Origin: Candidatus Woesearchaeota archaeon
GTDB lineage: Archaea > Nanobdellota > Nanobdellia > Woesearchaeales > GCA-2686295
Direction: 5' to 3'
DNA length: 64,000 bases
Assembly: GCA_937912225.1 (NCBI GenBank)
Contig: CALDOJ010000036.1
Span: 31,191 to 95,190, forward strand
The translations under genes were made by a program, and so were the position numbers. How positions within the stretch are numbered: position 1 is the stretch's first letter; each line of letters begins with the position of its first letter. Positions 4,882 to 48,156 of this stretch are shown in pieces. The notes below the pieces were generated by a model, which saw nothing but the letters and a program-made list of their open reading frames with translations, did not search any database and had not been told where the DNA came from.

Positions 4882-4892
4882 GAAGTATAATC

Positions 4893-5420: not shown

Positions 5421-5453
5421 AAAATGAAAAAATTAATAAATGAATAAACAAAG

Positions 5454-5831: not shown

Positions 5832-5839
5832 ATCTAAAA

Positions 5840-8800: not shown

Positions 8801-9310
8801 ACCATCAGCTGTTTTAGCATTAACAAGAACTATATGCATATATTTCTGTTTAATACTTCCATCTGCTTCTTCCCAATCATAAATACCTTCAGCTTCAACC
8901 CCGCCTTCTGTTTTTGACATAATATTCCAAAAACCAGGAAGTTTATCTGCAAGATTATGAAGGTCTAAATTAACTATGCTTGGATTAACGTGAAATCTTG
9001 CAATTAAAGAATTGTAATCAGTTACTGCTGTATAACCAGATTTACCAACTTGTTGAACTGCAATTTCTTGAAAGTAAGAATCATTTTGAAGATCTAAAAC
9101 TGTTTTATCAGGATTTAATGTAATATAAATCTCGATTTGTTTTGCAACATCAATTGCTTTTTGTTTAATAAACAATTCCGCTTGTTTTAAGAATTCGTTA
9201 GTTGAAGAAGATTCATAATCTGCTACTGATGTAACAGTATTACTTTCAGCAACAACTAAAGTTGAAACTAATAAAAACAATACAAAAATTAATTTAAACA
9301 ATTTATTCAT
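5840..9310 (-). CDS. Membrane sensor histidine kinase with two extracytoplasmic sensor regions, coiled-coil, HisKA and HATPase_c domains
   Basis: 1156 aa. Signal/TM at the N-terminus, at least four TM helices separating two large extracellular segments (Cache-like). H-box SEFISVTAHELKTPLASIHGF (plus 6507-6560, reverse). C-terminal GHKL ATPase motifs (N box …NLVNNAVKYS, G1 DEGTGI, G2 GGTGLGLAI). Convergent with the CheY gene, leaving an 8-bp gap. Confidence 0.9.
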   Translation of the reverse strand: MNKLFKLIFVLFLLVSTLVVAESNTVTSVADYESSSTNEFLKQAELFIKQKAIDVAKQIEIYITLNPDKTVLDLQNDSYFQEIAVQQVGKSGYTAVTDYNSLIARFHVNPSIVNLDLHNLADKLPGFWNIMSKTEGGVEAEGIYDWEEADGSIKQKYMHIVLVNAKTADGVGLHVAATTYLDEYESGITLTSKEELLSEISLEKLVLKNIQDAKIVFDVLNEKDVTTLKNLMTNFMEQEEYKKIFLEGDRDKLYNSVVEMFNKNKEVYDITHFYFYNLNGTNLLRVHNKDIFGDEITRITFEQSKLSNSWGAGIELGKTAFALRVVHPYYYNGELIGYVEFGQEIDKFINAMKQQTGFDYGIVVKKDFIDEHEWAFIRELKGLRNNYYDMDDFLLIDSTDKTNLLFNEASFNENHFKLSSDEGSMFHEFSLGEKTFVDGGFALYDAGGNKVGTVVVIQDISQFKEEVKSEELSLTKLMFVFIGVGIIILIIVFFLYKLKLIHFEKNTVVILLSISLLLILGLFLFNTYNVTQSMKEERSLTIASQLSTIANLQSKFIQEYLKEQEYRLKIFAIDEELSIEEQKKLVNNINEFNELFILNSDGIVIASSNEQNIGLDKSTEEAFLFGKIETYFKSVYYSETEEKIFFSISIPYNEGVLVANLNTEVLVEKFNNEIGMGETGESLVAFRNRNGDAEFFSKRRFETEAEAQDIIPKENTEIPITQALLNNQDVFLDFNDYRNTPVIAVTNYIPELDVGIVTKMDEAEVVSFVEQTINSIWTSTAGIMFAILIIGIVFNFLLTNTLRKEVDEKTNELQKITTNLEITVKERTKELEESRKELQLHEEELETLVENKTVELNNKVEELEKTRTAVLNILEDVSLSKEELEISEKRLVGINKELNAANKEMKKMDKYKSEFISVTAHELKTPLASIHGFATLLQNKKILENKTQRDYYLSIVMKDADRLKQLIDDILDLSRLDLGTMKFFFEKINLSELVKDVVNELYVMAAKKQVELEMNVDSKIQDAIVDKSRLSQVIVNLVNNAVKYSDKPNTKIIISVKKQDKELLFAVKDEGTGIEKKNLKKIFERFYQADSSYTRKVGGTGLGLAISKGIIEVLGGSMWVESKLNKGSTFYFTLPTTKRAEGEHELTVFNRFKENN

Positions 9311-10584
9311 TTTTTCTTTTCTAATTTTAATTCTAATTCTTTAACTTGTTTTTTTAATTCAACCATTTTCATTTCTCGTCCAACTGTTAAATTACTAAAT
9401 TTTTCTAGTTGTTCAATTTTTATTTTAAGCTCTTTTGTTCGGCTTTCTACTTCTGATTCTAATTCTTTCTCGTGATTTTTAATTTTATTATTTGATGTTT
9501 TTAACTCATCAGACATTTTATTAAATGCGACTGATAATTCTCCAAGTTCGTCTTTTGACTTGACTTGAATTTTATAATTAAGATTTTCTTTTGCGAATTC
9601 TTCAGTTCCTTTAACTATTTCTCCTAAAGGCGAAGTTATTGTTTTTGAAAAAAGGAATGCGAAAATACTTGCAAAAATTGTAATTAATAAACTAACAAAA
9701 ACTGTTGCTTTCATCAAATCATTTACTGGCTGTAATGCTTCTTCTGTATCTATGGCTGCTAACAGACAAATTTCTCGTTCTGGAATCCAAATATGATAAT
9801 CTATCACTTCAATATTTCTATAACCAATATATTTCAAAGAACTTTCTTTTCCGTCTAAGCAATCTTCAACACCTGAATTATAAATTGCGCCTTTAAGAGC
9901 CATGTCGTCTTTAAATCTTGATTCTGTTAACATATAATTAAATTTGTTCACTAAGTATGTTTCTCCTGTGTCACCCATACCAGAACGTTCAGTCAATATT
10001 GAACTAATAACTTTTAGATTAACTCTGCCAACCAATACTCCTTTAACTATTCCATTTTCATCTTTTATTGGTGTTGAAACAGTCATAGAAGGTAAATTTA
10101 ATGATAAATCATAATAAAAAGGTTGAATATAAGATTCTGTTAAACCACGCTTAAAATAAATTTCATTTGATTTAATCTTGCCTTCTTGTTTTTTATCAGT
10201 TGACATATGGGCTATGCCTTTTTCATTTAAGATAAATAATTCAAAAAAATTTTGACTTGGAGAATTTAAAGTTTTTATTAAATAATCTTGAAGTTTATGA
10301 TGAGCAATCATATCATTAGAATTTGAAACTTCATGAAAATTATTCATAGCATAAAATAAATTCAGAAGAGTCTCATCTTGAGATAATTCTTCTAAATGAT
10401 ATTTTTCTTCAATAATAAAACTTTCAACTTGATTGGCTTTTAATACTGCTATACTTTCTAATTGAGATCGGACTCTATCTTCAATAGAAGATTTACCTAT
10501 TATAAAAAAAATTAAACTACTTACAAGTATAATTATTAGAGCTAAACTAATAAACACGCTTATTAATTTTATACTTAGTTTCAA
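9307..10584 (-). CDS. Membrane sensor-domain protein with extracellular Cache-like domain, HAMP domain and C-terminal coiled-coil; no kinase domain
   Basis: N-terminal TM, periplasmic region, second TM (TVFVSLLITIFASIFAFLF), HAMP-like ITSPLGEIVKGTEEFAKENLNYKIQVKSKDELGELSVAFNKMSDELK. Ends in …EQLEKFSNLTVGREMKMVELKKQVKELE. The 4-nt overlap with the kinase start indicates co-translation. Confidence 0.75.
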   Translation of the reverse strand: MKLSIKLISVFISLALIIILVSSLIFFIIGKSSIEDRVRSQLESIAVLKANQVESFIIEEKYHLEELSQDETLLNLFYAMNNFHEVSNSNDMIAHHKLQDYLIKTLNSPSQNFFELFILNEKGIAHMSTDKKQEGKIKSNEIYFKRGLTESYIQPFYYDLSLNLPSMTVSTPIKDENGIVKGVLVGRVNLKVISSILTERSGMGDTGETYLVNKFNYMLTESRFKDDMALKGAIYNSGVEDCLDGKESSLKYIGYRNIEVIDYHIWIPEREICLLAAIDTEEALQPVNDLMKATVFVSLLITIFASIFAFLFSKTITSPLGEIVKGTEEFAKENLNYKIQVKSKDELGELSVAFNKMSDELKTSNNKIKNHEKELESEVESRTKELKIKIEQLEKFSNLTVGREMKMVELKKQVKELELKLEKKK

Positions 10585-10643
10585 ATTTTAAGTTCTAACC
10601 TCTTTTTTTAATAGTTCAATACATTCCAATATTTAAATCCGGT

Positions 10644-12548
10644 TCATTCTAAAAACTCAGTTGTAAAAACAGTTTCAATATCAAAAGAGTTTTCAAGTTC
10701 TCCAACAGAATCTAAATCTTCATATAGTTTCTGCCATTTTTCTTTAGTCATAAAACCTATTTTTTGTGATGAATCTGCTTTAAAATATTGAATTGAAGAT
10801 TGAAGCATGTTTTTTTGATGTACAGGGTCTAATCTTGCATCATATTCAAAAACAAATCCTGTTGAATCCTCAGGGTTTTCATAAACATACTCCCATCCTT
10901 TCAAAGTAGCTGATAAAAACTTTCTAACTAATTCCGGATTAGTTTTTATAAGCTCATCAGTTGTAAAGATAACATTATAATAACTATCAAATCCAAAATC
11001 TGAAGGGTACAAAACATTGACTTCATAATTCTCTTCTAAAGCTTCTTGTAATTCATTTATAGAAACTCCAGCAACTAAATCAACATTTTCATCAAATAAA
11101 GATTGCAAACCATATTGTTTAGATACAAAATTAATATTTGAAGAATCAACACCATTATTTTCTAAAAGAATCTTTTTGATGATTGCTTGTGAACCAATAC
11201 TTGCAATAGTTGTTCCTTCTAAATCTTTAAGAGATAAAATATTTTTTTCTTTTAAAGACAAAAACACTGTTGGATTCTTATAATAAACTGCCGCAATCGC
11301 CTTTAGTTTTGCACCAGAACTAATCTTCTTCAATAAATCAATTGGAATAGTAACTCCAAATTGATCATCTCCATTTATAACTCTATCTTCAATTGACGCA
11401 TCATAACCTGCTGAATGCAAATCAACTTTTAATCCTTCAGCACCATAATATCCTAGTTGGTCTGCAGCATAGAAACCTACGAATTGATTTTGATGCAACC
11501 AAGATAATTTTACATTTACTTCTTCTTCTTCTTCTTCTTCAGAATAAATTTTCTCTAAAAATTTAGTTGTATAAACTAATTCAGAACCAATTGGTCTACT
11601 TAATATTCCTTGTTCAAATAAAATTCTTTGAGTACCTTCCCATTCTTTAGATTCCATCCACCCAAGTGGACTGTCACCAGTATGAATTAAAGGAATACTC
11701 TGACTTAACATGTAAGTTTCATGTTCTCTTGTGCTATCAACAGCGTATTTTAAAACAGTTGTAACTGTTTCTTCTTCATTCTCAATAGCGTATTGCCAGC
11801 CTTTCAAAGTAGCTCTTAGAAAATCTTCTACTAATTCAGGATTATTATTAATCATATCATCAGTTGTAAACAATACATCTGCATAAATATTAGCTCCATA
11901 ATCGGCCATTAAAATCGTGTTTACTTCATGACCTGCTTGCATTGCTAAATGTGGTTCGTTAATAATATAACCAGTTGATACATCAGTATCACCAGCTAAT
12001 AATTCAGTCGCATCATAACCAATAGTTACTTCATTAATTTGACTACGATCAATCTTAAGCCTATTCATCATAGATGCATACAAAATTCCGACATTAATAT
12101 CAGTTCCATCACTAGCTCTTTCAATACCAACAGTTTTACCAACAAAATCTTGAGGACTAGTAATTCCGCTAGTTCCTAAAGAGTAAGCAACAACTGGATT
12201 AATTTTATATATTACTGCAATAGCTTTTAGTGGTAGACCTTGTTCTCGAGCTAAAATTAATTCATCAGCACCAGTTATTCCAAATTCGACATCACCTTTA
12301 GCAACAGCAGATATGGTTGGTTCTTCAAATGAAAAAGGCTCTATATTAACATTTAATCCTTCATCAGAATAAAAACTGTTTTCTTTAGCAACATAATTAC
12401 CTGCGAATTGAGATTGATGAAGCCATTTAAGTTTTAAAGTTACATCAGTTAGTTCTTTTTCTTTAAATAAGAAAAAACTAGATAACACTAAAATAGCAAC
12501 TAAAACAATAGCTGAGTTAATTAAAAAGGTTTTTTTTGTATGTTTCAT
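10644..12548 (-). CDS. Tandem-duplicated NMT1/THI5 (SsuA/TauA-like) solute-binding protein, membrane anchored
   Basis: Two homologous ~300-aa halves, each beginning LKLKWLHQSQFAG / VKLSWLHQNQFVG…, with the pattern typical of NMT1-like ABC substrate-binding proteins. They are joined by an EEEEEEE linker ((GAA)7 at 11521-11541). N-terminal signal-anchor. Confidence 0.75.
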   Translation of the reverse strand: MKHTKKTFLINSAIVLVAILVLSSFFLFKEKELTDVTLKLKWLHQSQFAGNYVAKENSFYSDEGLNVNIEPFSFEEPTISAVAKGDVEFGITGADELILAREQGLPLKAIAVIYKINPVVAYSLGTSGITSPQDFVGKTVGIERASDGTDINVGILYASMMNRLKIDRSQINEVTIGYDATELLAGDTDVSTGYIINEPHLAMQAGHEVNTILMADYGANIYADVLFTTDDMINNNPELVEDFLRATLKGWQYAIENEEETVTTVLKYAVDSTREHETYMLSQSIPLIHTGDSPLGWMESKEWEGTQRILFEQGILSRPIGSELVYTTKFLEKIYSEEEEEEEVNVKLSWLHQNQFVGFYAADQLGYYGAEGLKVDLHSAGYDASIEDRVINGDDQFGVTIPIDLLKKISSGAKLKAIAAVYYKNPTVFLSLKEKNILSLKDLEGTTIASIGSQAIIKKILLENNGVDSSNINFVSKQYGLQSLFDENVDLVAGVSINELQEALEENYEVNVLYPSDFGFDSYYNVIFTTDELIKTNPELVRKFLSATLKGWEYVYENPEDSTGFVFEYDARLDPVHQKNMLQSSIQYFKADSSQKIGFMTKEKWQKLYEDLDSVGELENSFDIETVFTTEFLE

Positions 12549-12566
12549 TTATTAGCCTCCAGCTCT

Positions 12567-13355
12567 TTAAATCCATTTATTAGTTATTTCTTCTATTTGT
12601 TTTCCCCAAATCATCGTACCTAATACTTGATTAACTTCATTCATCAAAAGATTATTTTCTTTCATTGAAGCTAAGCCATAAAATTCTTGAGTAAAAGGAG
12701 TACCTACTACTTTTAATGAAGGATTATTTTTAACCAATTCTAAACCTGCAATGTAATCTATAATGATTGCACTTAAGTTATCATTCAATAATGCAACTGT
12801 TGCAAGATCATAATCTTCATAAGATAATACTAAAGATTCACCAGCATATTTTACTGCTTCATCATAACTAGTTGTATCCATTTGAACACCAACTTTTTTA
12901 CCAAGTAAATCTTCAGGAGTTAAAACTGATTCATCTTCAGCACTCACAACAATTACTTGACCGGCATTAAAATAAGGGATGGAAAATAACATTTCTTGAG
13001 ATCTTTCATCAGTAATAGTTATTGAAGAAATTGCAAAATCAACTTCTCCAGCTTTCACAGCAACGAATAATTCATCCCAACCATAATTAACAAATTCAAT
13101 TTCTAAATTTAAACGCAAAGCTATTTCTCTTGCAACATCAACGTCTATTCCTGCAAATTCACCATTTTCATCTAAGAACTCCATTGGTTCATAAGGAATA
13201 TTTGTACCAACAATTAACTTTCCTCGTTCTTGTACTTTTGAAAACGAATCATCACTTAATTGTTCATTTAACAATTCATCATTAGTTGATGTACAACTAA
13301 TAGTCATCAAAGACAATATTACTAGTACTAAAAAAAACGCTTGTTTATATTTCAT
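12567..13355 (-). CDS. Family-3 (polar amino-acid type) periplasmic solute-binding lipoprotein
   Basis: Signal peptide with lipobox-like …LMTISCTST. GKLIVGTNIPYEPMEF…GEFAGIDVDVAREIALRLNLEIEFV…FAISSITITDERSQ…FSIPYF is classic SBP_bac_3. Confidence 0.8.
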   Translation of the reverse strand: MKYKQAFFLVLVILSLMTISCTSTNDELLNEQLSDDSFSKVQERGKLIVGTNIPYEPMEFLDENGEFAGIDVDVAREIALRLNLEIEFVNYGWDELFVAVKAGEVDFAISSITITDERSQEMLFSIPYFNAGQVIVVSAEDESVLTPEDLLGKKVGVQMDTTSYDEAVKYAGESLVLSYEDYDLATVALLNDNLSAIIIDYIAGLELVKNNPSLKVVGTPFTQEFYGLASMKENNLLMNEVNQVLGTMIWGKQIEEITNKWI

Positions 13356-13368
13356 ATTTATTTCACCT

Positions 13369-16300
13369 TCATTGTTTTTTCTTTAATCGTTTAATTTCTT
13401 CTTTTAGTTTGATCATTTGTAATTCTCTATTAATTGCATACGTATGAAATTTTTCAAGTTCTTCAGTTCTTCTCTTCAATGCTTCATCAGATTTTTTTCT
13501 ATGAGTAACATCTCTAAGAGCTCCTGCTATTCCAATAATCTTCCCAGAAGAATTTTTAATAGGTGCTTCATCAATCTCAGCCCAAAATATTTCTCCATTT
13601 TTCTTCTTGAATTCTAAAATATAAGGTTTTTGAATTACTCCTGTCTTTAAAGCTTTCACAGTTAGTTTTAAACCTTCATCATTAATAGGGTTTTTTGTTG
13701 TTAAAGTAGTCCATTTAACCATCATCTCTTCTGGTGTGTAACCAAATACTCTTTTAGAAAGAGGATTCACATATGATAATTTATGATTTGTATCATGAAT
13801 GTAGAACATGTCATCACTATGTTCAATAATAGTTTTATATTTTTTCTCACTAGCTTCTAACAAGTTCTCTGCTTCTTTTTGATCAGTTATATCTCTAAAT
13901 ATTTCCATAATAACTTTTTTACCTTTAAGATTCATACCAACATGATTAATTTCATAAGTTCTATTCCCAGCAACCCCTGTTGTAATAATACTTCTTCGCT
14001 CACCTAATTTAATAGGTTTCTTCAATGGACAATCACCACATTGTTTTTTATTATCCTTATAAAGATTATAACATTTCTTTCCAATTGCTTTTTTTCCAAA
14101 AATGTTTAAGAAAAATTCATTCATGTAAAGAATATTTAAGTTTTCATCAACAATATCCATTCCTTCAGGTAAAGCCTTAAGAATATTTTCTGAAAACTCT
14201 TTTTCTTTTCGAAGTTCTCCTTCCGCAGTCTTTATATTTGTGATATCTGAAAGAACTCCCTCATAACCTTTCGCCACACCATTTTTATTATATACAATTC
14301 TAACACTATCTCGCACCCATTTTATATCTCCAGTCTTAGTTTTAAGTTTATACTCACTAAAAAAGTATTTATCTTTTTTCTTAAGAGCTTTATTTAAAAC
14401 AGGAGTTATACGCGTTACATCATCCTCAAACATTAGACTAACATACGATCTAACTTTGTTATTAATAACATCACTAACAGGAAAACCTGTAACTTCTTTA
14501 AATGCAAAACTTGCAAAAGAAAAAGTCCAATTCATATCACATTTGTAAACAACACCAGGAACAGTGTCTATCATATTTCTAAATTGTTCCTCGCTTTCTT
14601 TTAATTTTTCTTCTGCAAGTTTTTTATCTGTAATATCTTGAGTTGTTCCTATTAATTTAACTACAACTCCTTTCTCTTTTTTAGTTTTGCATCTTGCATT
14701 TACCCACACAATGTTCCCAGAAGGTTGAACTAAACGTATTTCTATATTATATCCAACACCTGTTTTAGTAGTATTCGCAACAGAATCATTAAATAAATTC
14801 CAATCCTTTGGATGAATATATTTCTTATGCTCTTTATAATTAAGTTCTCCTTTTTTTGGATCAATACCAAATATTTTAAATAATTGTTCAGACCAAATAG
14901 GTTGTGCAGTTTTAACATCAAAACTCCAACTTCCAATACTGGCTACTTCTTGTGCTTCCATTAATTGTTCTTCACTTACTATTAATTCTTCTTCTGCTTG
15001 TTTTCTTTCAGTAATATCTCTAATAACACCAACTACTTTAACTGGTTTATTATTCTCATAAATTAATTGTCCAGATTCTTCAGCAAAAATATATTTTCCA
15101 TTCTTAAGTTTAAGTCTGAATTCTGTTGTCGTAACTTTTCCCGTCTTCCAGAGCATTTCAAAATCTTTCATAACAGATTTCAAATCATCAGGATGAACAA
15201 AATTAGACAAAGGTTTTCCAAGAACTTCTTTTACTCTATAACCATATTTACCAATATTATCTGAAACAAAAATAATATTTCCATTAATATCATAACTATA
15301 AATTATGTCTGAGACTTTATTAACAAGAGTTTTGAATTTTTCTTCACTTTCTTTTAACTTTTTCTTTGAAAGTTCTCTGGAAGTAATATCTTGAAAAATA
15401 CAATGTGTTCTTTGAAACACACCATTTTCATCATATTCTGCAGTTCCATTATATTCAACAAGGATATGTTCGCCATTTTTTTGTTTCATAGAAAAGAGAA
15501 TATCACAAGCAGTACCTGTTTTTTTAAAATTAGAAAAATTTGATTTAAAATCATTTAATTTATCAGATGAAACAAACTCTGAAAAATTCTTACCAATAAC
15601 ATCTTGTTTTTTATATCCAAGAATGTTTAACCAAGCAGGATTAACGTCTAATAAATCCCCGTTTGAATCTAAAGATTGATATGGAACTGGAATTTTTTGG
15701 TAAACTGTTCTAAATTTATTCTCGCTTTCTATTAACTTAGTTTCAAAAAGCTTTTTTTCAGTTATGTCTTGAGTTATTCCAATTGCATTTATTGCTTTAC
15801 CTTTTTTATCAAATAATATCTTTGCTTTTTCTTTTACCCACTTTACTTTTCCTTTTACTATAATACGATGTTCAAGATTATAAACTCCAGACTTTAAACC
15901 TTCAGTCCACTTTTTAGCAACATATTCTTTGTCATCAGGATGAATGGTTGCTAAAAAACTTGATAAATTTAGAGAAGCTCCTTGTTTAACTCCAAATATC
16001 TTATAATTTTGTTCAGTCCATTCTAAAATGTCATTAACAATATCTAACTTCCAAGTTCCAATCAAACCAATTTCTTGCGATTTTAATAATTTTGATTCAC
16101 TTTCTTTTAAAGCTTCTTCTGAAAGTTTTTTTTCAGTAATATCAACTGCAGCAGCATAAATATATTTACCGGCATGCGTTGTTTGCCATTCTAAAGTTCT
16201 ATAAGAACCATTCTTATGTTTATATCGATTAACAAAATTAATTATAGAGTCTCCTTTTAGTTGTTTTTCTTTAAGCTCAACAGCTATTCTTTTTAAATCA

Positions 16301-17742
16301 TCAGGATGAGAAAGTTTAGTCCAACCAAGATCTAAAAATTCTTTTTTAGTATAACCCAACATAGATTTACAAGAATTATTAACATTAATTATAGTCCCAT
16401 CAACTTTTGAAATAGTCATTAAAACAGGCGCAGATTCAAAAATATCTTTTAATTTTTCTTCACTTTCTCTCAAATCTTCTTCTGCTTTCTTACGTTCTGT
16501 TGTTATAGTAAAATAAACTGATATGCCTTCTTTAGAAGGGTAAACTCTAACATCATACCAATTAATATAAGGTTTCTTTCCAAAAAAGATTTCAAAAGTA
16601 ACTAATTTATTATTTTTTAAAGCATAAGTATATTTTTCTTCAAATATACTTCCCTTAGCTTCTTTAAACACTTCATTAAATATTTGTTTGCCTAAAATAT
16701 CTTTGCTCTTTTTATTTAAAAGTTCTTCAGATTTTTTATTAAAATAAGTAAATCTAAGGTCTTGATTTAGTGTGAAAAATGCATCACTAATGCTTTCCAC
16801 AGTTGTTCTAAGTTTCTCTTCACTTTCAATTAATTTTTTTCCTATTCTATTTTTTCTCAGAAAATTGTTGAAAAGACCACTTATTGTTGAAATTTCGTCC
16901 TTAACTTTTTTATCTATTTTCGTCTCAGATTCAACAATATCCAAACCTATAAATCCTTTTAATTCATTGTTCTCTGTTAAAGGTATGGTGATTAAAGATT
17001 TGATTTTTTGTAATTGAAAATGTTTTTTTTCTAATTTTGCTTCAGAAGGTAATTTTGCTACACTTTCAACAACAAAAGGTTTTAGTTTTAGTATTTGTTT
17101 ATTAAACCAAGGTAATTCTTTTTTTAAATTAATATTTTTTAAATTATTTATTTCTGGCTTCACTCCTTTTCTACACCATTCATGAGTATTTGACATAAAC
17201 TTTCCTGAAACAGAAAAAATATAACTTCTATCTGCATGAAAATAATTTCCAATAGTTTCTAAAGCTTTATTTATAACATCATCAACTAATTCTTTATCAT
17301 AATCAATAAAAGACATAGAAAGTTCATTTAAGATATTCTCAAACAACAATTTTTGCTTTAAAAGTTTTTCTGCGTTTTTTTGTTCAGTAATATCTCTAAG
17401 AATTGTTTGTAAAGCAATTACTTTACCATTTTTCTTTATTGGTCGACTTTTATACTCCATAAAAAAGTTTCCTTTCGGAGCAATTATTTCAACAGAACCA
17501 TGAGTTGGTTTACCTTTAGCTAAGTCAAGCATTTCTTTTGTAAGCTGAAGAACATGTTTTTTTACAACCAATTTATACGTGGACTCACCAATTAAATCTG
17601 ATTCTTTAAAGCCATATTTATTAACTGCTTTATTTGCATAAAGAACTCTACCTTTTAGATCTATAAATAGAATTATATCTGTAAAGTTATCAAACAGGTC
17701 TGATTTAAAATTACTAGTACTAATCTCTGGTTTTTTACCCAT
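13369..17742 (-). CDS. Cytoplasmic multi-PAS/PAC (about 10 repeats) plus GAF sensor protein lacking a catalytic output domain
   Basis: 1457 aa. PAS/PAC signatures recur throughout (…DITE(Q/R)K…AEE.L…SEEK(L/F)…). A GAF-like block near residues 150-300. A Cys cluster CYNLYKDNKKQCGDCPLKK. Ends in …RRTEELEKFHTYAINRELQMIKLKEEIKRLKKKQ. The 13-nt gap to the SBP gene indicates co-transcription. Confidence 0.8.
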   Translation of the reverse strand: MGKKPEISTSNFKSDLFDNFTDIILFIDLKGRVLYANKAVNKYGFKESDLIGESTYKLVVKKHVLQLTKEMLDLAKGKPTHGSVEIIAPKGNFFMEYKSRPIKKNGKVIALQTILRDITEQKNAEKLLKQKLLFENILNELSMSFIDYDKELVDDVINKALETIGNYFHADRSYIFSVSGKFMSNTHEWCRKGVKPEINNLKNINLKKELPWFNKQILKLKPFVVESVAKLPSEAKLEKKHFQLQKIKSLITIPLTENNELKGFIGLDIVESETKIDKKVKDEISTISGLFNNFLRKNRIGKKLIESEEKLRTTVESISDAFFTLNQDLRFTYFNKKSEELLNKKSKDILGKQIFNEVFKEAKGSIFEEKYTYALKNNKLVTFEIFFGKKPYINWYDVRVYPSKEGISVYFTITTERKKAEEDLRESEEKLKDIFESAPVLMTISKVDGTIINVNNSCKSMLGYTKKEFLDLGWTKLSHPDDLKRIAVELKEKQLKGDSIINFVNRYKHKNGSYRTLEWQTTHAGKYIYAAAVDITEKKLSEEALKESESKLLKSQEIGLIGTWKLDIVNDILEWTEQNYKIFGVKQGASLNLSSFLATIHPDDKEYVAKKWTEGLKSGVYNLEHRIIVKGKVKWVKEKAKILFDKKGKAINAIGITQDITEKKLFETKLIESENKFRTVYQKIPVPYQSLDSNGDLLDVNPAWLNILGYKKQDVIGKNFSEFVSSDKLNDFKSNFSNFKKTGTACDILFSMKQKNGEHILVEYNGTAEYDENGVFQRTHCIFQDITSRELSKKKLKESEEKFKTLVNKVSDIIYSYDINGNIIFVSDNIGKYGYRVKEVLGKPLSNFVHPDDLKSVMKDFEMLWKTGKVTTTEFRLKLKNGKYIFAEESGQLIYENNKPVKVVGVIRDITERKQAEEELIVSEEQLMEAQEVASIGSWSFDVKTAQPIWSEQLFKIFGIDPKKGELNYKEHKKYIHPKDWNLFNDSVANTTKTGVGYNIEIRLVQPSGNIVWVNARCKTKKEKGVVVKLIGTTQDITDKKLAEEKLKESEEQFRNMIDTVPGVVYKCDMNWTFSFASFAFKEVTGFPVSDVINNKVRSYVSLMFEDDVTRITPVLNKALKKKDKYFFSEYKLKTKTGDIKWVRDSVRIVYNKNGVAKGYEGVLSDITNIKTAEGELRKEKEFSENILKALPEGMDIVDENLNILYMNEFFLNIFGKKAIGKKCYNLYKDNKKQCGDCPLKKPIKLGERRSIITTGVAGNRTYEINHVGMNLKGKKVIMEIFRDITDQKEAENLLEASEKKYKTIIEHSDDMFYIHDTNHKLSYVNPLSKRVFGYTPEEMMVKWTTLTTKNPINDEGLKLTVKALKTGVIQKPYILEFKKKNGEIFWAEIDEAPIKNSSGKIIGIAGALRDVTHRKKSDEALKRRTEELEKFHTYAINRELQMIKLKEEIKRLKKKQ

Positions 17743-42401: not shown

Positions 42402-42512
42402 AACCATAATAACTTGATTTATCAGTTCCAACCCTTATCAGCGTTGACGGAACTAGCTCTCTGCTAGGTCGCGATGCAAAAAAAGCATCTAACCATAATA
42501 ACTTGGTTTATC
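42402..42512. repeat. Imperfect 22-24 bp direct repeat (duplicate of the cdc48 3' end) flanking a 67-bp palindrome-rich insert
   Basis: AACCATAATAACTTGATTTATC at 42402-42423 and AACCATAATAACTTGGTTTATC at 42491-42512 (the latter encodes the CDC48 C-terminus DKPSYYG*). The intervening 42424-42490 contains AGTTCC…GGAACT and CTAGC…GCTAG inverted repeats and TCGCGA. Confidence 0.6.
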
Positions 42513-44576
42513 TTCTTGCATGCTTTTTGCATGAGCGCTTGTGAAATGATCTTTAAGTTTTTCATAAGCCTCGGCAATATCTTTAGTGGCACTTGGTCTA
42601 ACTTTTTTCAATGCTTCTTCAAAGAAAGCCATTTTTACAGTTTTAGCTTTCATATCATCTCTTAAAGCCATGATTGCTGCTTCTCTACAAACAGCTTCAA
42701 GATCTGCACCTACATATCCTTCGGTTTTATCGACTAACTTTTTCAAATCAAAATCTTTTGCTAATGGCATTCCTTTAGTATGAACTTTAAAGATTGCATT
42801 TCTGCTTCCTTTATCAGGAACAGGTGCTAAAACAATTCTATCAAATCTTCCTGGACGAAGAAGAGCAGTATCAAGCATGTCAGGTCTATTCGTTGCAGCA
42901 ATTATTACAACATCATTTAAATCTTGTAAACCATCCATTTCAGTTAAAAGTTGATTAACAACTCTTTCATTAACTTTTGAGTCAGCACTATCACTTCTTT
43001 TATGAGCCATAGAATCAATTTCATCAAAGAAAATTATTGTTGGAGATGTTTGTCTTGCTTTTTCAAAGATTTTTCTAACAGCTTTTTCACTTTCACCAAC
43101 CCACTTACTTAAAAGTTCAGGTCCTTTAACAAGAATAAAGTTTGCTTCACTTTCAGTTGCAACAGCTTTTGCAAGCAAAGTTTTACCAGTACCTGGTGCT
43201 CCATAAAGAAGAACTCCTCGAGGAGGTGTAATTCCCAATCTTGAAAAAGCTTCTTTTTTCTTCAAAGGCCATTCAACAGCTTCAATAAGTTCTTGTTTAA
43301 CTTCTTCTAAACCGCCAATATCAGTCCATTTAATATTTGGAATTTCAATTAATACTTCTCTCATAGCACTAGGTCTTACGACTTTTAATGATTCTTTAAA
43401 ATCATCTTGAGATAACTTTAATTTTTCAAGAACTTCTTGAGGAATTGTTTTCTCATCTTCAAGTTCTAGATCAGGAAGAACTCGTCTTAAAACAATCATA
43501 GCAGCTTCTCTTGCAAGAGCTGAAAGATCAGCACCTACAAACCCATGAGTTATTTCAGCCATTCGTTTTAAATTAACATTTTTATTAAGAGGCATGTTTC
43601 TAGTATGAATTTGTAAAATTTTATGTCGTCCTTCTTTTTGTGGAACACCAATTTCAATTTCTCGATCAAACCTACCAGGTCTTCGAAGTGCAGGATCAAG
43701 CGAGTTTGGAATGTTTGTTGCTGCAATTACAACTACTTTTCCTCGACTTTTTAACCCATCCATTAAAGCTAATAACTGAGCAACAACTCTTCTCTCTACT
43801 TCGCCTTTGCTTTCTTCTCGCTTAGAAGCAATAGCGTCAATTTCATCAATAAAAATTATTGAAGGACCATTCTTTTCTGCTTCTTCAAACTTCTTTCTAA
43901 GATTCTCTTCACTCTGACCATAATATTTACTCATAATTTCAGGACCATTAATTAAAAGAAAATTAGCATTTGTTTCATTAGCAACAGCTTTTGCTAACAA
44001 AGTTTTACCAGTTCCTGGAGGACCATGAAGCAGTACTCCTTTTGGTGGTTCAATTCCAAGAGTTTCAAAAACTTCAGGATGTTTTAATGGTAATTCAACC
44101 ATTTCTCTAACTTTTTTAATTTCAGATTCAAGTCCACCAACATCTTCATATGAAATATCAAAAACTTTTTCTTCTTGAACTTCAACTGATTCTGTTGAGT
44201 ATTTTACTTCTGTATGTTCTGTGATTAAAACTGCTTGTTTTGGATTTGCATCAGTTACGATGAATTTTAAATCTCCAAGACCAAAGCCCATCATAGTATC
44301 ATCAAGCATTGAAAACATATCATCAAAGAAAGGGTTACTAGACATAGTGTTTCTTCTTCTTTTAGTTCCGCCAAGCGAAACAATGTCTCCTTTCATAACT
44401 GCTCGTCCTAAAAGTCCTTTTTTGAAAATCTCAGGATTTGCTCGTACCATCACACCTTTTCGAGCTGGCGCAATAGTGATTTTTTTAGCTTCTTTAACAT
44501 CAACTTTTTTGACAGTAACCATTTCACCAATAGTTGTTTTAGCATTTCTTCTAATTAAACCGTCCATTCGAATCAT
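42489..44576 (-). CDS. cdc48: CDC48/VCP-like AAA+ ATPase (tandem D1/D2 AAA domains)
   Basis: Two Walker A/B cassettes ([15 protein letters not shown]…IIFIDEIDA and [15 protein letters not shown]…IIFFDEIDS) with SRH motifs. Coordinates are from the first ATG. The N-domain reading frame (…[26 protein letters not shown]…[14 protein letters not shown]…) continues 222 nt upstream to 44798 without any ATG/GTG/TTG (see findings). Confidence 0.9.
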
Positions 44577-44825
44577 GTTTAAACCAATATCTCCTGGTAG
44601 CGCCCTATCAGCTATTGCAACAGTAACTCTAGCACCATTAATTTCAACAATGTTTCCAGGTCTAATATCTAATTCTCGTAAGAAAGAACTATCAACTCTA
44701 ACAATTCCTTTGTTAACATCTTCTTGTATTGCTTCAGCAACTTTAAGTCTAATTTCGTTTGTAATGGTTATCCCCTCAAATAAATATTTTTGATGACTTT
44801 AGAGAATAAATAACTCTTTAAATTC

Positions 44826-44969
44826 TTTTTGGTTTAATGACTCCATTCTTTAAGAAAAATCATTATCCAAAAAAAGAATATTTTTGATTTAATGACTCCA
44901 TTCTTTAAAAAAAGTCATTATCCAAAAAAGAACTTTTTTGGTTTAATAACTGATTTCTTTAAAAAAAAC
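44826..44969. repeat. About 55-bp tandem direct repeat (2.6 copies), each with an AATGAC-N17-GTCATT palindrome, upstream of cdc48
   Basis: Copy 1 at 44826-44880 and copy 2 at 44881-44933 (TTTTTG[GA]TTTAATGACTCCATTCTTTAA…TCATTATCCAAAAAAG). Degenerate partial third copy at 44934-44969. Confidence 0.7.
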
Positions 44970-45011
44970 TAAAAGAAATAGAAGGGGAAAAAATAATCTA
45001 AAAAAAAATGT

Positions 45012-45416
45012 TTATTGTTGTTTAAGCTTTGGTAATGGGATTGGTGCTGGTAGGCCCAGATCTTTACTTAAGATTAAAGCTTGAATATTGCATTTGTTAA
45101 GAACATTGTTCATAACTTGGTTTGTTGCTTCTTTAGGAATAGATTTGTTCTTTTTCCAAGAATCAAGAACTTCTTTAGCTGTTTTTTCATCAGATAACAA
45201 TACTAATTCGCCATTTAATTCTATATTTCCAATTCCAGGTTCATATTTTGAAGTGTATTGAAAAGTAAACTTCATTGCTTTTTGGTCACCACCAATTGCT
45301 AATTTTGCTTCTTTAACATCTTTAATAGTAACATTATTACTAATGCTAACTTTACCTGTAACAGGAAGTTTTTTTTCAATCATCATTTTTGTGAAATTTA
45401 ATCCAACTATTGCCAT
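45012..45416 (-). CDS. Hypothetical protein
   Basis: 134 aa, soluble, no recognisable motif. Confidence 0.4.
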   Translation of the reverse strand: MAIVGLNFTKMMIEKKLPVTGKVSISNNVTIKDVKEAKLAIGGDQKAMKFTFQYTSKYEPGIGNIELNGELVLLSDEKTAKEVLDSWKKNKSIPKEATNQVMNNVLNKCNIQALILSKDLGLPAPIPLPKLKQQ

Positions 45417-45552
45417 TTTTAAAATCCTCCGTGTTTGAATAACACCTTCTTCTCGTTATTAAGTTTTGGTTTATAAAAGTTTTGAATTTACAAGAATAAA
45501 AAGAAATATTTATATATAAAACCCGCTATCCTGAAGGTTATGATTACAAAAA

Positions 45553-45626
45553 GTGATTATGCGTGGCAATAGTAAACCTTTTTTCTTAGATAGTAATATA
45601 ATATTAACTGGTGATTATGCGTGGCA
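45553..45626 (+). promoter_or_regulatory. Two 16-bp direct repeats GTGATTATGCGTGGCA in the long trpB leader/promoter region
   Basis: Exact copies at 45553-45568 and 45611-45626. A third partial TGATTAC lies at 45541-45547. The TTTATATATAAA TATA box at 45508-45520 is upstream, so the repeats probably sit in a ~250-nt 5' leader. Confidence 0.45.
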
Positions 45627-45787
45627 TTTACAAATTCATAACTTATTTTAAAACTTCTAATGGCTTCTGGCGTTTGTTCTTCTAATTAAAAATTCTTAGA
45701 TTAAAAAATAAAATGAAATTTCGGAGGCAAACAAAAAATTGTAAGATTTTTGAGTCTCCTAAAATAAAATTTTCGGAGGAATATAAA

Positions 45788-46972
45788 ATGAATATAAAAA
45801 ATAATATACCAAATAAAAAAGGATTTTTCGGAGAGTACGGAGGTCAATTTGTACCAGAAGGATTAAAGATTGCAATGAATAATCTTACAAAAGATTATTT
45901 AAAAATAAAAAAAGACAAAACTTTCAAAAAAGAATTTGTTGAATTAATGAATAACTATGTGGGCAGACCATCAGCACTTTATTTTGCTAGAAATCTAAGC
46001 AAAAAATATGGTTGTAAGATCTACTTTAAAAGAGAAGATTTAAACCACACAGGAGCTCATAAAATTAACAACACTATAGGACAAGCTTTGCTTGCAAAAA
46101 GAATTGGCATAAAAAAAATTATTGCTGAAACTGGAGCAGGTCAACATGGAGTTGCAACAGCAACTGCAGCTGCATTGATGGGCTTAGAATGTGAAATTTT
46201 TATGGGAGAAATTGATGCAAAAAAACAGATGATGAATATTTATCGTATGCAATTGCTTGGAGCTAAAGTCAATGTTGTTAAAAAAGGTGGCAGAACCTTA
46301 AAAGATGCAGTTGATGCAGCACTTGAATACTATATGCACCATCCAGAAGTATTTTATCTTCTTGGTTCTGTTGTAGGTCCACACCCTTATCCAATGATGG
46401 TTCGTGATTTTCAATCAATTATTGGAAAAGAAGCAAAGAAACAAATAAAAAAGCAAGAAGGAAGATTACCCGACTACCTTGTTGCTTGTGTTGGTGGCGG
46501 AAGTAATGCAATTGGCTTGTTTTATGACTTTATACCTAACAAACAAGTTAAGTTAATAGGTGTAGAGCCTGCTGGTAAAGGACTAAAAACAGGTAAACAT
46601 GCAGCAACTATGACTCTTGGAAAACCAGGTGTTTTACATGGATTTTATAGTTATCTTTTACAAGATAAAGATGGTAATCCATTGCCTGTTTATTCTATAG
46701 CTTCAGGACTCGATTATCCTGGAGTTGGACCTGAACAAAGCTTTTTGAAAGATATTAAAAGAGCAGAATTTAAACATGTAACTGATGCTGAAGCTTTAGC
46801 AGCGTTTCATGAAACTTCTAGAATTGAAGGAATAATTCCTGCTTTAGAAACAAGCCATGCCCTTGCATATTCTTTCAAACTTGCAAAGAAGCTTAGAAAA
46901 GATCAAATTATTATTGTGAACTTTTCAGGTCGAGGAGACAAAGATGTAGAGTTTGTTGCAAGCCTGCATTAA
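45788..46972 (+). CDS. trpB: Tryptophan synthase beta chain (stand-alone; no trpA in window)
   Basis: [13 protein letters not shown]…HTGAHKINN (PLP lysine)…GGGSNAIG are TrpB signatures. The ORF track starts at 45713. The ATG at 45788 is preferred because GGAGG lies 9 nt upstream and it gives a typical TrpB length (394 aa). Confidence 0.88.
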
Positions 46973-47040
46973 TTTTTTTTTTTTATTTTCAGAGGATAAA
47001 AAAGAAATATTTATATAACTAAAGAAGCAAACAAAATAAG

Positions 47041-48156
47041 ATGGATAAAACAATAATTACTCCTTGGGAAGTTAAAGGTAATGTTGATTATAATAAATTA
47101 ATAAGTGAATTTGGAGTTTCTAAAATTGATGAATCCTTAATGAAACAAATAGAAAAGCATGCAGGTGAAATTCATCATTTTCTTAGAAGAAATATTTTTT
47201 TTGCTCATAGAGATTTAAAGTTCTTTTTTGATGAATACGAGAAAGGTAATGCTTTTATGTACACTGGTTGTGGACCTTCAGGACCAATTCATATGGGACA
47301 TGCAACTGTTTGGATGTTTACTAAATGGCTTCAAGATAAACTAGGACTTGATCTTTGGTTTCAATTCACAGATGATGAAAAATTTCTTTTTAAAGATAAA
47401 TCAATGGATGAAATACAAAAATGGCTTTATGAAAATATGTTAGATGTTATTGCTTTAGGTTTTGATCCAAAAAAAACTCATTTTCTAATTGATACAAAAC
47501 ATGCAGGAATAATGTATCCTGAAGCAATCAAAGTTGCTAAAAAGATTACTTTTTCAACTGTAAAATCTGCATTTGGGTTTACTAACGAAAATAATCTTGG
47601 AACTATATTTTTTACTTCAATGCAAGCAGTTCCAGCATTTTTACCTAATATAATTGCGGGTAAAAAAATGGCTTGTTTAATCCCTCATGCAATAGACCAA
47701 GACCCACATTTTAGAGTTACAAGAGATGTCCTTCCAAAATTAGGACATTACAAACCAGCTTCTATTCAATCAATGTTTCTTCCGGGTTTAGGAGGTATGA
47801 AAGAAGATGGAAAACTTTCTTCTTCTACTGGTGAAGCGATTTATTTAACAGATGATAAAAAAACTGTTCGGAAAAAAATAATGAAATATGCTTTCTCTGG
47901 TGGTCAAGCAACACTTGAAGAACATAGAAAAAAAGGAGGTAACCCTGATATTGATGTTAGTTACCAATGGCTTCGATTCTTCGAAGAAGATGATAATAAA
48001 TTAAAAAAGATTTATGAAGATTATAAATCTGGAAAATTATTATCTGGAGAACTTAAACAAATTCTTGTTGATAAAATAAATGCTTTCTTAAAACAACATC
48101 AGAAGAATCGAGAAAAAGCTAAAGACAAACTCGATCAATTTATCTTTAAACAATAA
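47041..48156 (+). CDS. trpS: Tryptophanyl-tRNA synthetase (archaeal/eukaryotic type)
   Basis: Class-I HIGH-like …YTGCGPSGPIHMGHA and KMSKS-like KLSSST. 371 aa. A TTTATATAA TATA box at 47009-47017 sits about 25 nt before the ATG, so the transcript is probably leaderless. Confidence 0.88.
   Translation: MDKTIITPWEVKGNVDYNKLISEFGVSKIDESLMKQIEKHAGEIHHFLRRNIFFAHRDLKFFFDEYEKGNAFMYTGCGPSGPIHMGHATVWMFTKWLQDKLGLDLWFQFTDDEKFLFKDKSMDEIQKWLYENMLDVIALGFDPKKTHFLIDTKHAGIMYPEAIKVAKKITFSTVKSAFGFTNENNLGTIFFTSMQAVPAFLPNIIAGKKMACLIPHAIDQDPHFRVTRDVLPKLGHYKPASIQSMFLPGLGGMKEDGKLSSSTGEAIYLTDDKKTVRKKIMKYAFSGGQATLEEHRKKGGNPDIDVSYQWLRFFEEDDNKLKKIYEDYKSGKLLSGELKQILVDKINAFLKQHQKNREKAKDKLDQFIFKQ

Follow-up and report, generated by a model that had tools for sequence, protein, structure and literature searches.

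Ribosome-based amino-acid sensing on leader peptides is a classic form of gene control in bacteria. The described systems that appear closest to the present one are the upstream open reading frames (uORFs) with runs of cysteine codons on leaderless mycobacterial mRNAs, which serve as Cys-responsive attenuators (bioRxiv 10.1101/834739), and the translational attenuators of the ermC/cat type. For archaea, little is known about tryptophan (Trp) regulation beyond TrpY, according to a paper published in 2019 (PMC6737238), and our full-text literature searches yielded no example of an archaeal amino-acid-sensing leader peptide, the only regulators retrieved being the proteins TrpY and Tar. Here we analysed a 64-kb stretch of DNA (29.5% GC; hereafter the window) from an AT-rich archaeon of the DPANN/Woesearchaeota-Nanoarchaeota kind, in which a stand-alone trpB, encoding the beta chain of tryptophan synthase, lies next to trpS, encoding tryptophanyl-tRNA synthetase (TrpRS). 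The 248-nt leader upstream of this trpB (between a TATA box and the gene) is very likely regulatory, and it probably represents a ribosome-mediated, Trp-responsive leader-peptide regulator of trpB in archaea. Ribosome-mediated amino-acid sensing by a leader peptide is a known kind of control, whereas the domain of life and the anatomy (a leaderless mRNA, overlapping +1 frames and a conserved peptide) would be new. The evidence for conservation and for coding is strong; the response itself is what we infer.

The window was compared with 12 further distinct loci, which are the contigs encoding the closest relatives of its TrpB (L004, L005, L008, L087-L090 and L171-L175); TrpB identity across the resulting set of 13 loci is 67-100%. 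These nearest relatives are DPANN/Woesearchaeota proteins of 67-81% identity, labelled 'archaeon', 'Candidatus Woesearchaeota', 'Nanobdellati' or 'Nanoarchaeota', and all the host organisms are uncultured. In 13 of 13 loci the leader is situated directly upstream of trpB on the same strand. The 13 loci share phylogeny, and counts such as 13/13 therefore overstate the number of independent events. This kinship is offset by the GC content upstream of trpB, which ranges from 16% to 52% (10 loci measured), and by the flanking genes, which differ in most loci. The features of the leader in the window are as follows.

45500..45519, plus strand: leader promoter, a BRE-like (B recognition element-like) AAAGAAA and the TATA box TTTATATA (45509-45516); the TATA word TTTATATATAA covers 45509-45519
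45540..45572, plus strand: open reading frame (ORF) a, ORF-a, leaderless, 10 codons (MITKSDYAWQ, then stop), with Trp codon 1 at 45564-45566 followed by C
45553..45568, plus strand: repeat copy 1, GTGATTATGCGTGGCA, which holds the GUGAU(U) word, a spacer, Trp codon 1 and the GTG start of ORF-b1
45553..45651, plus strand: ORF-b1, (M)IMRGNSKPFFLDSNIILTGDYAWHLQIHNLF and stop, in the +1 frame relative to ORF-a, with the conserved FFLD block
45583..45591, plus strand: copy 1 of the TTCTTAGAT motif, with T6 before it (45579-45584), encoding F-L-D in ORF-b1; a conserved alignment block
45611..45626, plus strand: repeat copy 2, GTGATTATGCGTGGCA, 58 nt (3n+1) after copy 1
45611..45685, plus strand: ORF-b2, (M)IMRGIYKFITYFKTSNGFWRLFF and stop, carrying Trp codon 2 (45668-45670, C as the next base) in its conserved C-terminal S-N-G-x-W
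45675..45683, plus strand: CU-rich end of ORF-b2, UGUUCUUCU, a candidate segment complementary to the Shine-Dalgarno (SD) sequence (anti-SD)
45693..45701, plus strand: copy 2 of the TTCTTAGAT motif, starting 25 nt from the first base of Trp codon 2, outside the conserved ORFs
45719..45727, plus strand: SD mimic TTTCGGAGG, a duplicate of the trpB SD word
45752..45759, plus strand: anti-SD segment GAGTCTCC, whose CUCC is paired, in the free fold, with the GGAG of the true SD
45771..45779, plus strand: trpB SD word TTTCGGAGG, holding GGAGG at 45775-45779
45788..46972, plus strand: trpB, a canonical TrpB1-type tryptophan synthase beta chain of 394 aa

A sequence-only reading of this DNA had pointed out, in a leader of ~250 nt, two exact 16-nt repeats and a duplicated TTTCGGAGG, the short ORFs MRGNSKPFF..YAWH.. 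(45559-45651) and MRGIYKF..GFWRLFF (45617-45685), and a GAGTCTCC between the duplicated words that can pair with the second of them. All of these were found as described, and the CUCC/GGAG pairing is present in the minimum-energy fold of the whole leader. Exact direct repeats of 16 nt within 120 nt exist at only six places in the 64 kb, and chance is no sufficient account of the observation, as these elements are met again in the 12 other loci. The repeat GTGATTATGCGTGGCA corresponds to the core of the ORF-a module, ..S/G-D-Y-A-W, with the head of ORF-b overlapping it, and one identical copy of the 16-mer is present in L174, whose TrpB is only 70% identical to that of the window. In an alignment to an nhmmer profile of 8 related leaders, 45540-45599 matched model positions 1-60 and 45606-45681 matched positions 9-96; the window leader holds a partial tandem duplication. 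By this duplication ORF-b is split, the FFLD block residing in ORF-b1 and the S-N-G-F-W end in ORF-b2. Read in the ORF-b1 frame, repeat copy 2 gives a second GDYAW module, with its Trp codon at 45622-45624, and the 58-nt spacing puts copy 2 in an ORF-a-like reading for a ribosome in the ORF-b1 frame. In the relatives, TTCTAA/TTCTAG-type words start 10-20 nt from the first base of Trp codon 2. Separately, L002 and L003 are short contigs from other samples with an identical trpB, which start at window positions 45543 and 45551; their starts coincide exactly with ORF-a and repeat copy 1, a hint of strain variation or of a break in the assembly immediately before these points.

The distance from the end of the TATA box to the ATG at 45540 is 23 nt. 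A gap of 22-26 nt precedes the ATG of 8 ordinary window genes, trpS included, which argues for leaderless mRNAs in those genes; other window genes carry SD leaders of the GGAGG or GGTGA type. trpB itself is preceded by an SD, and the nearest 70 nt contain no TATA word comparable to that of the leader. From the TATA-ATG spacing, transcription would start at ~45540, and the ATG at 45540 would be the 5' end of the trpB mRNA, an end placed by spacing and not by mapping.

The common order of elements in the loci is a TATA box, an ATG 20-25 nt further on (a gap seen in every leader unit of the related loci), the short ORF-a, and the overlapping +1-frame ORF-b of ~25 codons. In 10 other loci, ORF-a has ~10 codons (8-10 in most units) and reads ..K-S-D-Y-x-W, with the stop codon 1-2 codons later in most units; examples, each closed by a stop codon, are MTRKSDYQWH, MQKSDYAWHR, MASKSDCRWR, MPTKSDLRWLQ, MQRVDLRWHI, MAHTGDCFWRR, MKSGDCRWQY and MKGDCRWL. 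ORF-b begins inside ORF-a (GTG/TTG-ATT) and has the consensus M-I-x-x-G-x(3-4)-F-F-L-D-x-x-I-F-K-I-S-N-G-x-W-(R/H/Q); its stop codon lies 0-3 codons past the Trp codon in most units, and 8-10 codons on in L008 and in ORF-b1 of the window. ORF-a is absent from L005 and L087, where the leaderless position is taken by an ATG belonging to ORF-b (MEKINLGKTINFKINYNLFRISNGFWQ and MNSNNLFKNSTFFLDNIIFKISKGIWH, respectively, each followed by a stop codon). Two complete units stand in tandem in L172 and L173, and tandem or partial duplication of units is typical of cis-regulators. Each leader possesses 2-3 Trp codons in different frames, and two UGG(C) words 60-140 nt apart. Trp makes up 0.7% of the codons in the genes of the window, yet both ORFs keep a single Trp codon beside the stop codon.

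The leader is restricted to trpB loci. With the nhmmer profile from 8 leaders, the held-out leaders of the window, L171, L172b and L087 were recovered at E <= 0.002 and that of L173b at 0.02, while L005 (0.27) and L008 (0.63) were weak. Outside the 13-locus set, the best match was at E = 0.61 in 1.1 Mb of fetched loci, which include the negative controls, ~155 other trpB loci, nearly all bacterial, among the TrpB matches listed from genome and metagenome collections. Motif scans of these other trpB loci gave no true match; loose peptide regular-expression matches in L107 and L111 turned out to be out-of-frame trpF, and those in L143 and L152 were due to chance. Nine ORF-b peptides matched no Pfam or NCBIfam model (E up to 10), Tna_leader included, and a search of a large protein database with a padded alignment of the leader peptides returned nothing, presumably as such ORFs are rarely called.

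Both frames bear signs of translation. After Trp codon 1, the +1 frame is open for 18-42 codons in 13/13 module copies, and the other two frames for 1-10 codons, frame 0 closing in 2-9 codons and ORF-a stopping 1-8 codons past the UGG. The Trp codon of the +1 frame is placed within the last 5 codons in most units and 10 codons before the stop codon in L008; an open +1 frame ending with Trp appeared in ~1% of composition-matched shuffles per unit. For the 8 codons before Trp codon 2, the mean column entropies at codon positions 1, 2 and 3 across 8 loci were 0.40, 0.71 and 1.31 bits, respectively, with synonymous variation at Ser (TCT/TCG/TCA), Asn (AAT/AAC) and Gly (GGC/GGT/GGA), and L090 carries an in-frame 3-nt insertion (FFL-V-D). 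The third-position variation and the in-frame indel argue for selection on the peptide, not on an RNA helix or a protein-binding site, and this substitution pattern shows that the ORF-b peptide is under selection.

We propose the following scheme for a Trp-responsive leader peptide. Transcription would start at or beside the ATG at 45540 to give a leaderless mRNA, presumably shared by the leader and trpB, on which ribosomes would translate the 10-codon ORF-a plus the overlapping ORF-b frame (ORF-b1/ORF-b2 in the window). When charged tRNA-Trp is scarce, the ribosome would dwell on the UGG codons near the ends of the ORFs. The last UGG (45668-45670) lies in or beside CU-rich segments that may lock the trpB SD, either directly through UGUUCUUCU or via the relay of SD mimic and anti-SD; a stall there would free the SD, and more TrpB would be made. 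With plentiful Trp, termination would be quick and the SD would be sequestered again. The conserved ORF-b peptide would probably strengthen or tune the stall from the exit tunnel. Trp sensing is favoured by the link of the module to Trp charging, as a tRNA-Trp gene is found in L172 and L174 and TrpRS in 7 loci. A precedent for leader-peptide control of trpB is given by bacterial-type TrpB relatives, in which classical leaders occupy the same place: L091 (2307-2354, MFKKFANLNNAWWTA and stop) and L092 (251-295, MNKIWRKKFKYWRV and stop) encode Trp-Trp leader peptides, each then followed by a hairpin-U terminator. Another bacterial-type relative, L094, has a T-box-like leader at ~2400-2460.

How a stall could reach the trpB SD was examined by folding. 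In the window (fold of 45652-45795), UGUUCUUCU (45675-45683) pairs with the trpB SD and is its best duplex partner in the leader (-9.4 kcal/mol, shuffle p = 0.15). An alternative fold of similar energy pairs the SD with GAGUCUCC and the SD mimic with GGCUUCUGG (45662-45670, including Trp codon 2); masking of Trp codon 2 moves the SD mimic to GAGUCUCC. The SD is hidden in both folds, and a ribosome on Trp codon 2 would free it in either. The energy for opening the SD of the window dropped from 5.5 to 2.5-3.6 kcal/mol when the centre of a 30-nt mask lay anywhere between 5 nt ahead of Trp codon 2 and 13 nt past it, and the only other masks lowering it lay over the anti-SD, 76-85 nt downstream (4.3 and 3.7 kcal/mol). 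Unmasked, the SD costs 14.8 kcal/mol to open in L171, 12.3 in L174 and 5.5 in the window; a ribosome-sized mask at Trp codon 2 reduces these costs to 5.3, 4.4 and 3.1 kcal/mol, respectively. Masks elsewhere were without effect in these three loci, save those over the anti-SD. In L171 and L174, a duplex of 12 bp joins the end of ORF-b to the SD region (-13.1 and -14.9 kcal/mol, respectively), at energies that 0/300 shuffles reached. Since SD release is clear in only two of the 12 loci tested and weak in the window, it cannot be the general mechanism. The 'translational switch' proposed in the sequence-only reading is thus plausible locally, the SD mimic, anti-SD and SD all being in place, whereas the arrangement is unconserved and statistically weak.

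In relatives without anti-SD pairing or with a downstream tRNA gene, the output may be transcription read-through or mRNA stabilisation. For L172, L088 and L089, where a tRNA gene or long T-runs come after the unit, control of transcript elongation would fit better, protection of the 5' end by the stalled ribosome being another option. A scan for bacterial promoters and terminators detected no hairpin of the terminator kind in the leader. Termination at oligo-T immediately past the Trp codons is an open, lineage-specific option, the T-runs ranging from T10 (L172b) to none (L174). Judged from the size of a coupled complex of RNA polymerase and ribosome, however, a polymerase still on a T-tract only 10-25 nt past the UGG leaves no room for a ribosome at that codon.

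Several observations weigh against the leader being a Trp-responsive regulator of this design. The spacer between leader and trpB varies from 43 to 253 nt and is unconserved. RNAalifold on 8 leaders returned 0 conserved pairs, the folds of three sub-regions of the window leader were no better than those of shuffled sequences (z = +0.35, -0.25 and -0.63), and the SD/anti-SD effect was absent or weak in 9 of the 12 loci tested. A separate trpB promoter is possible in such AT-rich DNA, co-transcription with the leader being presumed. ORF-b starts at a GTG 13 nt from the 5' end without an SD, a start with no obvious mode of initiation. Each ORF offers a single Trp codon, not a tandem run, and the ORF-b peptide is conserved beyond the needs of a plain hungry-codon leader.

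Part of the conservation asks for another explanation. An alignment of 12 units shows little or no variation in a GATT-N5-TGGC core. In 14/14 module copies the base after TGG is C, and the T of GATT is likewise invariant; neither is required by either frame, and in the genes of the window C follows only 14% of in-frame TGG codons and GGC makes up only 6.9% of Gly codons. The frame of TTCTTAGAT differs in L172 and L173, and part of the constraint therefore acts on nucleotides. GUGAU, a candidate SD-like stimulator, stands 3 nt before the P-site codon in 11/14 module copies, and GUGAU/GGTGAT is part of genuine SDs in the clade, e.g. AAAGGTGATATAACATG. When the UGG is placed in the A site, the layout of the leader reads GUGAU, E-site codon (UNN), P-site codon, UGG, C. 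In the prfB cassette, the order and spacing are SD-like word, UAU, CUU, UGA, C.

Such a layout raises the possibility of a hungry-codon +1 frameshift relay. With Trp-tRNA scarce, a ribosome at the UGG of ORF-a would slip +1 onto GGC, helped by pairing of GUGAU with rRNA, and only shifted ribosomes would reach Trp codon 2, stall a second time there and switch on trpB (in relatives tRNA-Trp too); in the window, two successive shifts would be needed (at 45564 and 45622). Besides the invariant T and C and the fixed position of GUGAU, this idea would account for the short ORF0 closing soon after the UGG ahead of a long, conserved +1 ORF (13/13 copies), for the 3n+1 spacing of the repeats, and for L172b and L173a, in which ORF-b has no GTG, ATG or TTG (GCG-ATT) yet is open and ends with Trp. 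The invariant T and C, the prfB-like layout and the intact ORF-b lacking a start make a +1 shift a serious possibility. Nevertheless, we consider the relay unlikely on balance. GTG or TTG heads ORF-b in 12 of the 14 module copies, and the ATT that follows could itself be a start codon, as seemingly in CDC48 of the window; the ORF-b of L005 and L087, with its own leaderless ATG, needs no ORF-a. The P-site codon is slippery (TTT_T) only in L090 and L171, being GCG_T in the window and CAA, CGC, CGG or CGT in the others, and GATC, which would match the rRNA better than GATT, never occurs. A third-frame reading (GUGAU as SD, 5 nt, NTG, GCN) also accounts for the invariant GC in 7/13 units. Furthermore, the 2016 recoding review that treats the site features of prfB and Ty1 knows of no productive example of hungry-codon frameshifting, and no regulatory example is known from any organism (PMC5009743). 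As an observation in its own right, the third-frame mini-ORF is possible at 45563-45589 of the window and at the equivalent positions elsewhere: GUGAU, 5 nt, NTG (GTG in the window) and then always GCN (Ala). It closes after 4-10 codons, often at the TAG of TTCTTAGAT, and N is C, giving a non-start codon, in 6/13 units.

The selection on the ORF-b peptide could also mean a TnaC-like arrest peptide, in which the nascent chain of ORF-b binds free Trp or indole in the exit tunnel and stalls near the stop codon, the Trp residue being a part of the sensor. The constraint runs along the whole ~25 residues (G5, FFLD and [IF][FS][KR][IT][SA]NGxW), a length that fits the exit tunnel; the stop codon comes 0-3 codons past the Trp in most units, and no RNA structure is needed, which is consistent with the RNAalifold result. 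We nevertheless hold an arrest peptide to be distinctly improbable, as (i) no similarity to Tna_leader or another leader family of Pfam/NCBIfam was detected, (ii) induction by high Trp would be odd for a Trp-forming enzyme, although induction by indole would make sense, and (iii) ORF-a is too short for a tunnel sensor and still conserves its Trp codon.

It is very doubtful that ORF-b, and perhaps ORF-a, encode functional micro-proteins with no cis-regulation, for instance partners of TrpB or TrpRS, or trans-acting peptides like the rhizobial peTrpL. Leader peptides with functions of their own do exist (PMC7298713), the peptide sequence is conserved here, and L005 has a 253-nt spacer and possibly a separate TATA-like word before trpB. 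Against micro-proteins stand the Trp beside the stop codon in both ORFs, the tandem duplication of units, the tRNA-Trp of L172, which comes straight after a unit and lacks any visible promoter, and the size of ORF-a, only 8-10 codons in most units; such peptides are too short for family or fold tests.

The promoter of the leader has a counterpart at trpS, and the features between the end of trpB and the end of trpS are as follows.

46973..46984, plus strand: T12 run directly past the trpB stop codon, a candidate archaeal terminator
47001..47017, plus strand: trpS promoter, with the same 17-mer AAAGAAATATTTATATA and the same 23-nt gap to the ATG
47041..48156, plus strand: trpS, an archaeal-type tryptophanyl-tRNA synthetase of 371 aa, in leaderless position

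The exact 17-mer occurs only twice in the 64 kb, at 45500-45516 in front of the leader and in front of trpS, and may reflect a common promoter-level control of both Trp units. The 16-nt repeats and the conserved words could be imagined as a DNA operator for a Trp-responsive factor, TrpY- or Tar-like, as the sequence-only reading had suggested for the repeats. The words are placed just past the TATA box and the transcription start, a frequent position for archaeal repressors; the constraint is partly on nucleotides (the invariant T and C, and the TTCT(T)AGAT word with its shifted frame in L172 and L173), TCTAGA-like palindromes are seen in several loci, the 17-mer is identical at the two promoters, and the known archaeal Trp control is by proteins (PMC6737238). 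Even so, an operator is highly improbable, and the repeats are better described as a translated module with conserved frames and Trp codons. The stretch 45400-45800 contains no TGTACA TRP box, the 16-mer lacks dyad symmetry, a single copy is the rule among the loci, and beside the locus there is no conserved regulator gene; an operator would also leave unexplained the open +1 frame, the frame relation of the Trp codons (13/13 copies), the 3-periodic substitutions and the in-frame indel.

Least probable of all is a structured RNA sensor, either a riboswitch or a T-box-like element whose two conserved UGG(C) words would pair with the anticodon and CCA end of tRNA-Trp: despite the tRNA-Trp in the module at two loci and the T-box-like leader of the bacterial relative L094, no Rfam model matched (E up to 10), RNAalifold found no pair, which led us to drop the structured-RNA reading, the leader folds like shuffled sequence, and a coding signature is unexpected for a structured RNA. 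At the Rfam gathering thresholds the window contains only a tRNA-Arg, and nothing relevant appeared in 44780-45900 at E up to 10; neither a tRNA nor a C/D-box-like gene was detected in the leader. T-box-like pairing of UGGC with the 3' end of the tRNA was ruled out, as the discriminator A73 would need UGGU.

The gene behind the leader is an ordinary one. The trpB ORF spans 45713-46972, and its true start, the ATG at 45788, stands 8 nt past GGAGG (45775-45779) and agrees with the N-termini of homologues. The protein scored 587.2 bits against TIGR00263 (cut-off 392.45), whereas it remained under the cut-offs of TrpB-like models (NF009057, 192 against 366; TIGR01415, 186 against 519). HTGAHKINN, with the pyridoxal-phosphate-binding (PLP-binding) lysine, is encoded at 46046-46072, and the translation also contains AETGAGQHG and VGGGSNAIG with the GGGSNA phosphate loop. 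The neighbouring trpS scored 508 bits with NF008927 (cut-off 478) and 254 with TIGR00233 (177). Pfam searches of the remaining ORFs of >=90 aa, together with precomputed Pfam annotation, disclosed no other trp gene, trpA included, in the 64-kb window, and trpA adjoins trpB in 0 of the 12 related loci. The claim of the sequence-only reading that trpB stands next to trpS, with neither trpA nor other trp genes in the window, therefore holds by Pfam, TIGR00263 and NF008927, and trpB stands alone in 12/12 relatives as well. According to published surveys, the Trp pathway is missing from most Woesearchaeota (PMC8421398, PMC11606122), and the lone TrpB could be taken to serve indole/serine salvage to Trp. 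The T12 run past trpB is likely to be an archaeal terminator; T-runs after trpB are also present in L004, L171, L088 and L173. Termination at oligo-T is the archaeal mode on which this role is based.

trpB and trpS are linked, being adjacent or one gene apart, in 7/13 loci, and all these neighbours, six of them in relatives, pass TIGR00233 as TrpRS. They belong to two subtypes that are only 31-33% identical to each other: the NF008927 type in the window and L088, and the NF008925/6 type in L004, L171, L172, L173 and L174. The window (TrpRS at 47041-48156), L004 (7260-8345) and L171 (4271-5356) share their flanking genes, i.e., a 134/132-aa gene, CDC48, a 76-78-aa gene and a CBS protein. With two TrpRS subtypes in loci that share all other neighbours, the trpB-trpS linkage appears to have been kept through gene replacement, and trpS seems to have been replaced in place. 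A tRNA-Trp (CCA, A73) is encoded in L172 at 2885-2960, between leader unit 2 and trpB, after a T10 run and with no visible promoter of its own, and in L174 at 4185-4261, 9 nt past the trpB stop codon and between trpB and trpS. In L088 (1690-2373) and L173 (4179-4820), a YggS-like PLP-binding protein (Ala_racemase_N) sits between trpB, itself encoding a PLP enzyme, and trpS. L172 encodes at 4335-6700 a TrpRS with a fused N-terminal B3_4 domain (586 aa), with an HD-domain gene ahead of it.

The remainder of the window offers some further observations. Its genes include those for topoisomerase VI, CDP-archaeol synthase, GatD/GatE, CDC48, RIO1 kinase and TruD. Divergent from the leader, a 134-aa protein with no Pfam or NCBIfam family is encoded on the minus strand at 45012-45416, and has conserved counterparts in the equivalent position of L004 (54% identity) and L171 (52%). 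The ATG-started ORF of CDC48 (42489-44576, minus strand) is short of ~62 N-terminal residues seen in the homologues of L004 and L171; the upstream frame, 44577-44762, is open and aligns to the homologues, and holds no ATG, GTG or TTG. The start codon of CDC48 is likely to be the ATT at 44762-44760, 6 nt past GAGGGG. The 436-nt gap between the 134-aa gene and CDC48 contains three tandem copies of ~55 nt (44826-44989; 100/87/67% identity), each with an internal inverted repeat TTTGGTTTAATGACT ... AGTCATTATCCAAA. At 5454-17742 there is a sensory cluster that is large for a small-genome archaeon, comprising a response regulator, a 1156-aa dCache histidine kinase, a dCache/HAMP protein, NMT1-/SBP-type binding proteins and a 1457-aa multi-PAS protein.

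If the leader is genuinely a Trp-responsive leader-peptide regulator, translation-coupled Trp sensing exists in the third domain of life, before trpB, tRNA-Trp and TrpRS genes across DPANN, and works on leaderless mRNAs without hairpin terminators. The lone TrpB would then be a regulated function worth retaining in genome-reduced symbionts, which would support indole-to-tryptophan salvage as a part of host dependence. If the frameshift relay were the true mechanism, it would be the first regulatory starvation-induced frameshift at a sense codon, as well as the first ribosome-mediated amino-acid sensor described in Archaea, and would answer an open question of the recoding field (PMC5009743) with a two-step gate, or a three-step gate in the window. 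The leader is a compact element of ~150 nt, and is testable in archaeal genetic systems or in vitro.

Compared with known systems, the leader is not a T-box or another Rfam family, not a relative of TnaC and not a TrpY operator. TrpY of Methanothermobacter and Tar of Thermococcus share with it the purpose, the control of archaeal Trp genes, but are DNA-binding proteins with defined boxes (PMC6737238); no such box was seen here, and no regulator gene in the loci examined. The arrest peptides TnaC, SpeFL and AAP are alike in that a conserved nascent peptide of ~24-34 residues controls a gene of a related pathway, Trp being important in TnaC. The leader has no sequence similarity to TnaC (W12-x3-D16-x7-P24); its Trp is 1-4 residues from the stop codon, not 12 before it, and it has no conserved Pro.

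The likeness to the +1 frameshift sites of prfB (RF2) and Ty1 (CUU_AGG_C; PMC5009743) lies in a short zero-frame ORF that stops just past the shift site, a slow A-site codon followed by C, a long conserved +1 ORF, and a candidate SD-like word 3 nt before the P-site codon. The leader differs in that the slow codon is the sense codon UGG, presumably slow under Trp limitation, the P-site codon is mostly non-slippery and the +1 product would be a 25-residue peptide, the frameshift itself being hypothetical. With the trpL attenuator of E. coli, and those of L091 and L092, the leader has in common a short ORF upstream of a Trp gene on the same strand (13/13 loci), Trp codons near its end and, presumably, sensing by dwell time. 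Adjacent Trp codons and a terminator/antiterminator, which belong to the classical trpL type, are lacking. In its stead the archaeal leader has a leaderless mRNA from a TATA promoter, single Trp codons and two overlapping ORFs in different frames; it has no terminator or antiterminator hairpins and no conserved structure, and the peptide itself is conserved.

By analogy, the mycobacterial leaderless poly-cysteine uORFs and the erm-type translational attenuators appear to be the nearest functional counterparts of the leader. The former differ in being bacterial, in their runs of Cys codons, and in having neither an overlapping second frame nor a conserved peptide. In ermC and cat the inducer is a ribosome-bound antibiotic, whereas for the leader a shortage of Trp-tRNA, or else a ligand, would play this part, and the helix at the SD is unconserved in the leader family. 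What the leader shares with the mycobacterial uORFs is the position of a leaderless uORF at the 5' end of a polycistronic mRNA, codons for the amino acid of the downstream pathway and, as we propose, stalling of the ribosome; with ermC and cat it would share a stalled ribosome that opens an SD-hiding helix, which fits L171 and L174 and, more weakly, the window, and that may also stabilise the mRNA.

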